Positions 10,331 to 12,694 of a stretch of 64,000 bases of DNA are shown here, in pieces; the stretch's first letter is position 1; each line of letters opens with the position of its first letter. The DNA is from Escherichia phage KKP 3954. The translations under genes and the position numbers were made by a program. The notes beneath the pieces are model-generated. The model was not told the origin of the DNA. It did not search any database and was given only the letters and a program-made list of their open reading frames with translations. The stretch is from the sequence record OR067838.1; one strand, 5' to 3'.

Positions 10331-10603
10331 TTAAAGCAAAAACGCTACATCTTGCGCTTTTAGTGTAGTATCAACCATTTTTGGGCTTTTATAATCAACA
10401 AAACGCGCGGTTTTTTCAATAGCAAAACCGAGATAATCTTGTTTATTGAATTTACATTCTTTCTTAAATGTTTCCCGCGCCACGGTGATCGCTGCGTCCA
10501 GGGATAAACGCCCGTCAATGTTGATATTTGCGAAAGATCCGCCACCGCTCATAGGTTTACCAGTGGTGCCAGCTACGATCATTGTTGCGCTATATGATGC
10601 CAT
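10331..10603 (-). CDS. Hypothetical early protein
   Basis: ORF track 10331..10663 starts inside the leader hairpin; start moved to ATG 10603. Confidence 0.5.
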   Translation of the reverse strand: MASYSATMIVAGTTGKPMSGGGSFANINIDGRLSLDAAITVARETFKKECKFNKQDYLGFAIEKTARFVDYKSPKMVDTTLKAQDVAFLL

Positions 10604-10626
10604 GATTATAATCTCTCTTCTGTTGT

Positions 10627-10650
10627 GAGCGGCTGGACCATTCCGCCGCC
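10627..10650 (-). other. Conserved GC stem-loop in the 5-prime leader of early transcripts (example copy; family consensus GGCGGCAATGGTGCCGC with compensatory variants)
   Basis: More than 20 copies between promoter -10 and SD; stem changes are compensatory (e.g. CGGGAACTATTCCCG, CGGGAAACCATTTCCCG). Confidence 0.6.
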
Positions 10651-10661
10651 CTATGTGATAC

Positions 10662-10689
10662 ATCTTATCAGGTTGTTGGTTGTTGTCAA
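10662..10689 (-). promoter_or_regulatory. Early promoter of the conserved family (TTGACA, 16 nt spacer, TAAGAT)
   Basis: Hexamers on minus strand upstream of leader hairpin 10627-10650. Confidence 0.55.
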
Positions 10690-10695
10690 TACTTT

Positions 10696-10893
10696 TTATT
10701 CTATTCCTGCAATCTGATTAACGCGTTTGCATTTTGTAGCGTGCTGGTCTTCTGTAATTACTCCCATTTCTAACAGTGAATCAATGAAAGATAAAACCGT
10801 TTCATGATCATCCTGGGGATGACTGAACTCAGTAAAACCGTTTACTACCACGTTTATTTGTCCAGCTTTCGCCACAATGTGCAATGTTGCCAT
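10696..10893 (-). CDS. Hypothetical early protein (about 65 aa)
   Basis: ORF track 10696..10983; start moved to ATG 10893 after the leader hairpin; SD GGAG. Confidence 0.5.
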   Translation of the reverse strand: MATLHIVAKAGQINVVVNGFTEFSHPQDDHETVLSFIDSLLEMGVITEDQHATKCKRVNQIAGIE

Positions 10894-11080
10894 GATCTTA
10901 ACTCCAAATAGTGAGCGGCACCATTGCCGCGCTACGTGGTAAATATTATGCCGCCACCTGGCGAACGTCAACCACTTTTTCAATCTTTTTTATTTTCTTT
11001 TTGCTTGCTATATATAAAGGAAAGGGCTATCATCTTTCTACCGCGCCAACCAGGGCGCACAACAAAGAAAGGGCGACACC

Positions 11081-11347
11081 ATGACAACTACTACATTACA
11101 CCTTATGCACTCATTGGGCTGGCAAGGCGGCACGGTGCACCAGGTAGCAAGCGCAACAGGCTTAAAGGTTGAAACCGTTCTCAACCTGGGCGATCATAAA
11201 GTGGAAGAGATAGAACATTTTGATCCGTTCGCTGATGGTTATTTATGGGCTTGCAGTGGCGGCGGGGAAAGCAAGATCCCGCCAGCGGCGCGGGGCGATA
11301 TGCATTTTTGGTTAGGTGTCCTTTCCTGGCAAGAAAACAAAAAATAA
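11081..11347 (+). CDS. Hypothetical protein in a GC-rich island (atypical composition, possible moron)
   Basis: ORF track; only plus-strand gene in the first 18 kb; local GC clearly above the genome background. Confidence 0.45.
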   Translation: MTTTTLHLMHSLGWQGGTVHQVASATGLKVETVLNLGDHKVEEIEHFDPFADGYLWACSGGGESKIPPAARGDMHFWLGVLSWQENKK

Positions 11348-11349
11348 TC

Positions 11350-11378
11350 TTGACAAGCCCAGGGATCGGGCTTATACT
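11350..11378 (+). promoter_or_regulatory. Near-consensus sigma70 promoter (TTGACA, 17 nt spacer, TATACT) followed by a GC-rich structured segment of about 110 nt
   Basis: Hexamers seen directly; same GGG(A)CTTATACT -10 context recurs at 46759-46787. Confidence 0.5.
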
Positions 11379-11719
11379 GTTTTACATACAGAAGAGGAAG
11401 CGCCACCCCACGGCGTAAAGGCGGGGCTAACATACCAGGGCGCTGGTTGGAAGGTTGATCGCCGGTAGGCTGGGCGCTATATATTTGTAAAGAAATGTAA
11501 AGATAAAATAATCGCTTGCTTTCCTGGCTGGATCTGTTATTCTTATTACATGGCGAGGGGATACGGGAACGCGAGACAAACACCGCCCCTGCGCGTCATT
11601 CTCTAAATGAGAATGATTATCATTTACCTTATTGAATAAGAATCAATCTCATTTATAAACTTAAATGCGAATCATTATCATTTGCATTTCCATATGAGAA
11701 CTCTTCTCATTCTCACCTG

Positions 11720-11960
11720 CATAAATTTTTGTAAACTTTAAATTTTGCTTTTGTATTTTCATTTTTGTAAAAGCAAAAAAACTTTAAATACTGTGGGCGC
11801 GCAAAATTTTTAAAATTTTCCTTGACTTTTGAGTTTTGTTTTGTATCTAACATTTTAAGATAATTTTCCTAAACTTTAAATTTTGGTTTTCAACTTTCAC
11901 TTTTGTAAATTCTTAAAAAGTTTAAATAATTTGAGGAATTTTTGAGATAACAGGTAGTGG
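11720..11960. repeat. AT-rich region with two imperfect direct repeats of about 65 bp (each with AAACTTTAAATTTTG and TTTTGTAAA) and a TTTGAGATAAC direct repeat
   Basis: Repeats read directly in the sequence; no ORFs; lies between the two minus-strand gene clusters. Confidence 0.45.
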
Positions 11961-12060
11961 TAATTTGAGATAACCTTTAATCTTGTTGGTAAACCTTCAG
12001 GAACCCACCTAGATCGAATCCTAGAAAGGTCAACTGAAAAAGACAAGTGTTTGTATAGGA

Positions 12061-12096
12061 CAAAATAATAGGCTCTCTACGGTGCTGTAGGAGCCT
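12061..12096 (-). terminator. Rho-independent terminator downstream of the NADAR gene
   Basis: Hairpin GGCTCTCTAC..GTAGGAGCC followed by T-rich tract on minus strand. Confidence 0.5.
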
Positions 12097-12151
12097 TATT
12101 TCTGTGCTACAAAGTGGCACCTTTGTTCTAAAAATGAAAAAAGTTAAAATA

Positions 12152-12694
12152 TCACAAATATCGTCTTTGCGGTATTTTGTCTGGGAAAAGTATTTCGATC
12201 AGTTTATTATGATATTTGCCTAAAAGATTCTGCCCTTTCCAAGTGGCAGGGTTGAGCACCCCTGGTTCATACATCCCCATTCCAATTCCGTAAACCTTAT
12301 CGTAGGGGCTTGCTTCAACAAACGTTTTGTATTGGTAAAGGTGCAAGTCTGCATACAAATCTGGATTCTGTATATATTTCAAGCATAAACCTCGCATAAC
12401 AATACGCTCACGGTTCTCTTCCCACACGTTGTTATCAAAATCCGACACTGCCCTACCCATACGTTTGTAATAAGCTTGTTTCCTCTCGTTGTCACGTATA
12501 GTCGAGTGATCAAGGATAGCTGCTGCAATCGCATGATCCTTGAACAGCAAAGCCTTACGCCACATCATGTATTGCTCAACACAACAGAAAGTCTCATTGT
12601 AACCTGGTTCGGTTTCTGTAAAGGGTGCAATATACCAATTACTAAAAACATCTTTATGTGAAAAGAAGAATACATATTCGTCAGTTATTCTCAT
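12152..12694 (-). CDS. NADAR-domain (YbiA-like, DUF1768) protein; candidate ADP-ribose-processing enzyme
   Basis: 180 aa; FFF..FSNW..PF, EQ..M..KA.LF and NP.L motifs typical of the YbiA/NADAR fold. Confidence 0.6.
   Translation of the reverse strand: MRITDEYVFFFSHKDVFSNWYIAPFTETEPGYNETFCCVEQYMMWRKALLFKDHAIAAAILDHSTIRDNERKQAYYKRMGRAVSDFDNNVWEENRERIVMRGLCLKYIQNPDLYADLHLYQYKTFVEASPYDKVYGIGMGMYEPGVLNPATWKGQNLLGKYHNKLIEILFPDKIPQRRYL

Follow-up and report, generated by a model that had tools for sequence, protein, structure and literature searches.

A predicted structured RNA family and a conserved noncoding module in a phAPEC8-like Escherichia phage and its relatives

The region considered here lies in a 64,000-nucleotide (nt) stretch of DNA from Escherichia phage KKP 3954 (sequence record OR067838.1), hereafter the window, and is centered on a GC-rich segment that is proposed to encode a small structured RNA, designated RNA1. 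In a megablast search with positions 10900-11750, which matched 146 phage records, the closest relatives were members of the genus Phapecoctavirus (phAPEC8, ESCO5, ESCO13, and tuntematon; 95-98% identity), and on this sequence evidence the window is assigned to a phAPEC8-like Phapecoctavirus. In annotated relatives, the region forms a gap of ∼1.2 kb that separates two leftward gene clusters. Its sole annotation in tuntematon and ESCO13, which is also the only annotated plus-strand coding sequence within ∼5.8 kb around the site, is an open reading frame (ORF) of 88 amino acids (aa); in phAPEC8, the gap is annotated instead with a minus-strand ORF, phAPEC8_00257. The sequence-only reading of the window had described a GC-rich island with a plus-strand ORF and a near-perfect sigma70 promoter, all of which are present. 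The GC content of positions 11040-11480 is 0.531 versus a window mean of 0.394 (standard deviation, 0.031, in 441-nt windows), the highest of any 441-nt window in the 64 kb and a level reached by 0.02% of such windows. The 88-aa ORF starts with ATG and occupies positions 11081-11347 of the plus strand. The promoter, P1 (TTGACA-17-TATACT, 11350-11378, plus strand), matches 11 of the 12 consensus positions and is the best match in a promoter scan of positions 10500-12500. Beyond P1, the elements of a conserved module follow in the order RNA1, a GTAAA-N5-GTAAA direct repeat, a second promoter (P2), a second predicted RNA (RNA2), four palindromes, and AT-rich repeats. The high GC content of the noncoding part comes from the RNA helices and the GC-rich palindromic spacers of the promoters.

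RNA1 (11384-11486, plus strand), a predicted structured noncoding RNA of ∼100 nt belonging to the sequence type designated A, is defined by conservation, covariation, and the match to a covariance model. A sensitive blastn search with positions 11040-11600 matched 234 records, of which the distant ones aligned only over query positions 342-464 (window 11381-11503), sometimes extending to 556. The identity of the RNA1 segment is 78-83% in Mydovirus, Certrevirus, and Seunavirus and 69-78% in Henunavirus and unclassified Vequintavirinae, and the hosts of these distant RNA1-bearing phages belong to Klebsiella, Cronobacter, Salmonella, Pectobacterium, Enterobacter, Erwinia, and Serratia. All matches in the inspected genomes sit in gene-free gaps of ∼0.8-1.3 kb flanked by leftward genes. 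The RNA1 segment is retained where the 88-aa ORF is replaced or absent and is the best-conserved DNA of the region, above the flanking genes. The alignments comprised 24 and then 39 distinct sequences, with 33 distinct sequences in the structure alignment of RNA1. Among 8 close relatives, 4 of 85 RNA1 sites are variable versus 17 of 89 third-codon positions in the 88-aa ORF, so that the constraint on RNA1 is stronger than that on the synonymous sites of the adjacent gene; P1 has no variable positions (0 of 29) in the same comparison. Across the 39 aligned sequences, the positions of the P1 hexamers are fixed while the sequence of the GC-rich 17-nt spacer changes. The RNA1 core, ACGCC-A-CCCC-AC-GGCG-NAAAGGC-GGGG-CUAAC-[P3]-GGAAGGU-NR-AUCGCCGG-UAG, is near-invariant outside the hairpin designated P3.

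The pattern of length changes is not that of a protein-coding sequence. In the alignments, P3 differs in length by 1, 2, 4, or 6 nt and the RNA1 core carries single-base insertions; the 1-nt core insertions, together with the indels of 1, 2, or 4 nt, exclude translation of the RNA1 segment. The statement of the sequence-only reading that the segment holds no obvious ORF has to be qualified: a 50-aa ORF with a GTG start (11316-11468, plus strand) and a 114-aa ORF (11239-11583, minus strand, annotated as phAPEC8_00257) both overlap it. The former fails the conservation test and is interrupted by frame-breaking indels in relatives, and the latter contains stops or frameshifts in 8 relatives. The annotation of phAPEC8_00257, which overlaps both RNA1 and RNA2, is very likely spurious. 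Nor did the suggested search for a known RNA family yield one: Rfam 15 gave no match in the whole window at the gathering thresholds, nothing overlapping positions 11380-11600 at E ≤ 10, and nothing relevant at E ≤ 1 in the type-B, type-C, and rV5-like loci described below. ARAGORN detected 0 tRNA or transfer-messenger RNA genes in the 64 kb, and the “tRNA-Ile” listed under the match in K45PH128C2 is a tRNA next to it on the minus strand, and the two overlap at the edge of the match only. In the few related records inspected, no RNA is annotated in the largest noncoding region, to which some of them assign spurious ORFs; the literature search found no account of these RNAs, of their transcription, or of a replication origin for this phage group.

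The consensus structure of RNA1 comprises a long-range helix, the P3 hairpin, and a candidate pseudoknot. In the alignment of 33 sequences, 95.6% of the cells are compatible with pairing in the consensus structure plus the pseudoknot, compared with 87.2% in shuffled alignments and at most 53% with slid partners. Changes on both sides are found in 8 of the 16 pairs versus 3.6 in shuffles, a value reached in none of 500 shuffles. The strongest signal comes from P3 (11431-11449, CAUACCA-GGGCGC-UGGUUG), a hairpin of variable sequence and length in which 7 of 8 pairs are changed on both sides (e.g., A-U/G-C in a ratio of 17:15 and C-G/G-C in a ratio of 26:7). The segment CCAGGGCGCTGG (11435-11446), singled out in the sequence-only reading as capable of forming a hairpin, is indeed the tip of P3, but the folding energy of the region is ordinary for its composition. 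In the long-range helix predicted by RNAalifold, CGGCG (11411-11415) pairs with CGCCG (11460-11464), the latter inside the invariant AUCGCCGG motif; 100% of the cells pair and the one change, C to U in locus L005, keeps a G-U pair, which is consistent with pairing but does not prove it. The candidate pseudoknot joins CCC (11407-11409) with GGG (11424-11426). In RNA1 of type B, CCCC..GGGG is switched to CCAA..UUGG; 3 sequences are doubly changed at one pair, and 97% of the cells pair; the number of independent events behind this candidate is small. The wobble pairs of RNA1 (5 G-U and 0 A-C) favor the plus strand as the transcribed one. RNA1 also has two identical CGCC segments that compete for GGCG partners.

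A covariance model, R1, built from the 33 RNA1 sequences has a single match in the window (11385-11486, 102 bits) and recovers every RNA1 type elsewhere at 70-121 bits. These types are the canonical type A; type B, which is carried by Henunavirus and an uncultured lineage (loci L299 and L380-L382); and type C, found in KP12. In two genomes (L021:6149-7167, minus strand, and L373:809-1102), types A and C occur as tandem paralogs, each with its own promoter. In the former, the first RNA1 copy is directly followed by an inserted ORF of 197 aa that has no Pfam match, which suggests a mobile gene. On the basis of these sequence matches, RNA1 is regarded as a predicted RNA family that is absent from Rfam, falls into three sequence types, and is common to Stephanstirmvirinae and most Vequintavirinae. 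A gapped pattern, ACGCC..ACGGCG..ATCGCCGG, used in scans of viral and metagenomic sequences turned out to be too loose and produced chance matches from GC-rich DNA, none of them confirmed by nhmmer; a tighter pattern retrieved genuine variants of type B and new ones of type A. The loci examined were also checked for a relationship to the pseudo-ToxI locus of phage phiTE; they contained no ToxI-like sequence, and a link to it was rejected.

Taken together, the data give good support to the view of the GC-rich segment as a noncoding element that is conserved, structured, driven by a promoter, and read from the plus strand, with a probability of about 0.7. The proposal of the sequence-only reading that the promoter and the adjoining structure represent a small RNA is thus supported by the comparative evidence, because the promoter and RNA1 are conserved beyond the flanking genes, the indels break the reading frame, compensatory changes occur, and the wobbles are G-U and not A-C. 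Like the Hfq-type trans-acting small RNAs, RNA1 has a promoter of its own, the position of which is kept in all 39 sequences; a rho-independent terminator is not a property of RNA1 across lineages. Several observations weigh against this interpretation. Folding of the single sequence 11384-11500 gives a z score of −1.69 (−1.42 for the minus strand), and 13 of 200 shuffled sequences fold as well; because this is not significant, the structural claim rests on comparative data. The covariation in those data is concentrated in one hairpin and comes from few independent lineages, and the long-range helix is otherwise so invariant that it offers no covariation signal for or against pairing. No conserved hairpin with a U tract follows RNA1 in other lineages; only in the sub-lineage of the window is there a closing helix, GCGCC/GGGCGC, followed by UAUAUAUUUGU and a U-rich run. 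A search of the window for complements to the conserved loops and unpaired motifs of RNA1 returned nothing convincing. There is also an rV5-like genome that lacks RNA1 and has a second RNA2-like unit in its place. It is possible that the DNA is conserved for a reason unrelated to RNA, such as protein binding.

Downstream of RNA1, the direct repeat GTAAAGAAATGTAAA (also given as TTTGTAAAGAnnnGTAAAGA; 11487-11501, plus strand) is an exact match to GTAAA-N5-GTAAA, the CpxR-box consensus (PMC4846824), and by this match is a candidate CpxR box. No other exact copy exists in the 64 kb, and the repeat ends 15 nt before the −35 hexamer of P2. In type-A lineages, the GTAAAGA half-sites are invariant and 3 spacer bases are variable; only one half-site is present in type B. 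P2 (TTGCTT-16-TATTCT, 11516-11543, plus strand) scores too low in the window to be reported by the consensus scan, but the positions of its hexamers are conserved over a variable spacer and its counterpart in other lineages reads TTGCAA-17-TATATT. It is followed by RNA2 (11550-11625, plus strand), predicted from a helix found by RNAalifold, the wobble bias, and a terminator-like match. The closing helix of RNA2, in which AUGGCG (11550-11555) pairs with CGUCAU (11594-11599), shows GC/AU/GU variation (RNAalifold positions 3-8:48-53), and GAGACAAnCACCG is a conserved motif within the hairpin. The first palindrome forms part of an AU-rich hairpin (11595-11617) that is terminator-like. The wobbles of RNA2 (55 G-U versus 16 A-C) again point to the plus strand, and support for RNA2 as a second small RNA with the predicted fold is moderate. 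Further copies of an RNA2-like unit, each with a promoter, a palindromic box, and a hairpin that bears the GGAG..CACCGG motif, lie ∼7 kb away in genomes of Mydovirus and Henunavirus, such as at L008:4309-4418, L019:4974-5083, and L291:1173-1284 (all on the minus strand). Two tandem RNA2-like units without RNA1 are present (L383:1360-1610) in the 137.5-kb record CP057073.1, which is filed as an Escherichia coli plasmid and looks like an rV5-type phage.

The four 17-bp palindromic boxes (consensus, ATGAGAATGATTCTCAT) start at 11607, 11636, 11665, and 11694, exactly 29 bp apart, and span positions 11607-11710; the same spacing was read by eye from the aligned sequences of CR9 and K45PH128C2. With up to 3 mismatches allowed, the palindrome has 13 matches where 0.32 are expected. 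The boxes resemble operators of the ferric uptake regulator (Fur), natural sites of which usually agree with the consensus at most of its 19 positions. The 19-bp Fur consensus GATAATGATAATCATTATC (PMC4506495) is matched at 16 of 19 positions at 11609 and at 46, and the window contains 6 sites with at least 15 of 19 matches versus 0.45 expected (∼13-fold), concentrated in two noncoding regions. The second of these is a long gene-free region at positions 1-1260 of the window, where the palindromic box is found at 50-66, 229-245, and 1001-1017; many GenBank records of Phapecoctavirus and Justusliebigvirus begin or end inside the equivalent region. Between the boxes and a convergent gene lies a gene-free stretch (11711-12100) of 24-28% GC with a 72-nt direct repeat present twice (at 11724 and 11862), AAACTTTAAAT motifs, and several inverted repeats, the equivalent of which in Vequintavirinae consists of CGATCGAGAnCC and AAAAATTTTTTCGC repeat units. 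The convergent gene (12152-12694, minus strand) encodes a NADAR-domain protein (Pfam PF08719, E = 1.9e-35). An uncultured lineage (L299:2975-3100; L380, L381, and L382) keeps type-B RNA1 and RNA2 and is devoid of the Fur-like boxes, having in their place other repeats, GAAACTATCAC and TGATAAC..GGTATCA. These repeats suggest lineage-specific DNA-binding sites, and the missing boxes would argue against a universal role of Fur.

Upstream of P1, the 88-aa product of the plus-strand ORF belongs to PHROG 19316 and is without a Pfam family. Its predicted structure has five helices with a predicted local distance difference test score (pLDDT) of 94.5, and a fold search with it gave no significant match. 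A weak promoter-like site, TTGCTA-17-TATCAT (11005-11033, plus strand), lies upstream of the ORF and matches the consensus at 9 of 12 positions, which is the sole ground for listing it. The slot is occupied in different lineages by the 88-aa family, by an unrelated gene, or by nothing: Mydovirus and Seunavirus have a gene for an unrelated DUF7170 protein of 61-63 aa upstream of the P1 equivalent, and no gene is found there in the Certrevirus and Henunavirus loci examined. The 88-aa ORF is thus a real orphan gene, a lineage-variable and exchangeable piece of cargo located just upstream of P1. The P1 spacer contains an inverted repeat, AAGCCC..GGGCTT (11355-11373), followed by a T-rich run, and scores as terminator-like, so that its hairpin may also terminate the transcript of the ORF. 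A divergent, early-type sigma70-like promoter that serves the leftward gene cluster (TTGACG-17-TAATAT, 10943-10971, minus strand) likewise has a GC-rich, palindromic spacer that scores as a terminator-like hairpin (10964-10951). These two promoters may represent dual promoter/terminator elements.

The sequence-only reading took the composition of the island as a sign of a horizontally acquired moron. With respect to the features by which morons are recognized, the 88-aa ORF has a GC content of 0.494, a variable slot, a promoter-like site upstream, and a hairpin downstream, and no donor was found; the same features are not applicable to RNA1. The variable slot gives that proposal weak support, and the absence of a host homolog speaks against it. 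The E. coli genomes contained no match to the region; the plasmid collection yielded only CP057073.1, which, as noted above, resembles an rV5-type phage genome and lacks RNA1; and in the collection of genome contigs, one contig of a metagenome-assembled genome matched. Wherever the source is stated, the relatives of the 88-aa protein come from phage records or phage-sized contigs. On these comparisons, acquisition of the island from a host is not supported, and the GC-rich noncoding part, far from having been imported recently, is older and more conserved than the rest of the region. The broader possibility that the island is a host-derived moron and its GC-rich tail a gene remnant or a protein-coding sequence (the 50-aa plus-strand ORF or the 114-aa minus-strand ORF) could appeal to the atypical GC content, the variation of the ORF slot among lineages, and the annotation of the minus-strand ORF in phAPEC8. 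It is contradicted by the E. coli genomes, by the phage origin of the 88-aa family where a source is given, by the frameshifts or stops in both overlapping ORFs in close relatives, and by the conservation of the noncoding part, which exceeds that of any flanking gene. The host-derived and coding explanations are therefore essentially excluded.

The best overall account of the locus, to which a probability similar to that of the structured noncoding element is assigned, would combine the orphan 88-aa gene, P1 as an early-type promoter for host sigma70, and a gene for RNA1, with RNA1 and RNA2 acting as RNAs of an early control region. Host RNA polymerase would transcribe RNA1 from P1 immediately after infection, and the transcript would act as a folded RNA, possibly with a pseudoknot, rather than as a message. 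Because most lineages have no conserved terminator after RNA1, transcripts from P1 would probably run through P2 and RNA2 and reach the AU-rich hairpin at 11595-11617, if not the palindromes and AT-rich repeats. As the RNA products of the early noncoding control region of the phage, RNA1 and RNA2 would have one of two roles: binding to a conserved factor of host or phage origin, or an action on the neighboring DNA, which is origin-like or operator-like. The best guess is that RNA1 is an immediate-early structured RNA linked to such a control region.

What the module does at the DNA level bears directly on this proposal. A possible, if tentative, alternative is that positions 11350-12100 constitute a replication origin of the phage, with the palindromes serving as initiator iterons, the AT-rich repeats as the unwinding element, and the P1 and P2 transcripts as primers or activators. 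RNA1 would then be an origin transcript and not a trans-acting regulator, which agrees with the structured-RNA interpretation on the identity of RNA1 and differs on its role. The arrangement fits that of iteron-type origins, in which at least 3 phased repeats adjoin an AT-rich region: there are four boxes with a 29-bp period, also read from the aligned sequences in distant genera, next to ∼400 bp of 24-28% GC repeats, and two tandem promoters are aimed at a stretch without a plus-strand gene. The L299 lineage keeps this architecture with different repeats, as expected of iterons matched to their initiators, and the literature does not define an origin for rV5-type phages; in the rV5 paper, the skew analysis tracked only the direction of transcription and the origin could not be placed. 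The points on the other side are that the cumulative GC skew shows no inflection at the module beyond that of the local island (weak evidence), that the same palindromes occur in the second noncoding region ∼10 kb away, that RNA2-plus-box units are found elsewhere in related genomes among ordinary genes, that no initiator protein was identified, and that simple R-loop priming would not need such strict conservation of RNA sequence and structure. Less probable, and in our view unlikely, is that the module is tied to host regulators, so that the palindromes would be Fur boxes and the GTAAA repeat a CpxR site, and P2/RNA2 and the read-through from P1 would respond to iron and envelope stress. The 16/19 Fur matches and the excess of sites with at least 15 matches are in line with this proposal, as is the sole exact CpxR consensus of the 64 kb lying just upstream of the P2 −35 hexamer with invariant half-sites and a variable spacer. 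All of this consists of consensus matches, and the 29-bp spacing is atypical of Fur arrays, the L299 lineage has no boxes, type B keeps a single GTAAAGA half-site, and the A/T-rich repeat may be no more than the U-rich end of RNA1 or an UP element. Were the Fur and CpxR sites functional, a lytic phage would couple its earliest transcription to host stress signals. A still more speculative and improbable extension is that the RNA1 and RNA2 families represent a new class of immediate-early phage RNAs that bind or mimic a conserved host component, with their output gated by Fur and CpxR. If so, they would not work by antisense pairing but might, e.g., act as a decoy against a defense system or help to take over the machinery of the host, and the gating would mean that a virulent phage reads iron and envelope status at its control region.

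Two further explanations concern RNA1 itself. Its promoter-proximal position, its compact and possibly pseudoknotted fold, the competition of the two CGCC segments for GGCG partners, and the lack of its own terminator in most lineages would all be expected of a cis-acting leader, either an antiterminator similar to the put RNAs or a riboswitch-like attenuator, that modifies the polymerase started at P1 or decides on read-through. Such a leader is quite improbable here, given that no plus-strand gene lies downstream and the next genes are convergent, that P2 provides an independent entry into the same downstream region, and that Rfam contains no matching riboswitch or leader. An even smaller likelihood is assigned to the conserved segment working as DNA, i.e., as a protein-binding site or as a packaging or recombination signal, with the RNA structure being incidental. 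The nearly invariant core would suit a protein site equally well, and some related GenBank records (e.g., EC152 and R7) start within 100-300 bp of the module; these starts are probably conventions, since other records place the module mid-genome. A site that works as duplex DNA would hardly account for the compensatory changes and length variation of P3, the wobble bias is strand specific, and the promoter is conserved at a fixed distance.

Among the known phage systems, the predicted RNA1 resembles lambda OOP, P22 Sar, P1/P7 C4, and P4 CI in being a short noncoding RNA with a sigma70-type promoter, a gene-free slot in the phage genome, and a conserved structure. Those RNAs, however, regulate known targets in temperate phages, as antisense or processed RNAs, and end at clear terminators, whereas for RNA1 no target within the window, no conserved terminator, and no Rfam match was found, a pseudoknot is possible, and the phage is a large virulent myovirus. 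Tandem promoters directed into AT-rich repeats without a gene are reminiscent of the primary origin of T7 (tandem promoters and an AT-rich stretch), of oriF and oriG of T4, and of ColE1 RNA II; the function of the ColE1 origin depends on a structured RNA. In contrast to the T7 and T4 origins, the module has a palindrome array that is closer to lambda-like initiator iterons, and it is known from sequence only; RNA1 and RNA2 are far shorter than RNA II. The put RNAs of HK022, which act without translation, are similarly structured RNAs located right after an early promoter, but put sites precede long early operons with terminators, while the RNA1 strand encodes nothing downstream. RNA1 thus belongs to none of the OOP/Sar/C4/CI group, the transcript-dependent origins, and the put RNAs. 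The module shares with the Fur operators of Enterobacteriaceae the 16/19 match over 19 bp and the A/T-rich hexamer palindromes beside promoters (PMC4506495); it differs from them in the regular 29-bp phasing, in its location in a noncoding region of a lytic phage, and in the loss of the boxes from one lineage.

What is new here is a predicted structured RNA family and a conserved noncoding module common to two phage subfamilies. The phages of the rV5, phAPEC8, phi92, and PVP-SE1 types are widely isolated and are candidates for therapy and biocontrol. With coordinates given for each element (two promoters, two RNAs, the palindrome array, and the direct repeat), the early control or origin region of this group becomes testable. 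The covariance model can serve as the seed of a new RNA family, and several annotation errors have been flagged. Among the records collected, the “Campylobacter phage” entries B15, C3, and A110a are ∼91-96% identical to the coliphage sequence at 10900-11750, and the module of “Acinetobacter phage ABPH49” closely resembles that of Serratia phages; judging from these sequences, the host labels of all four records look doubtful.

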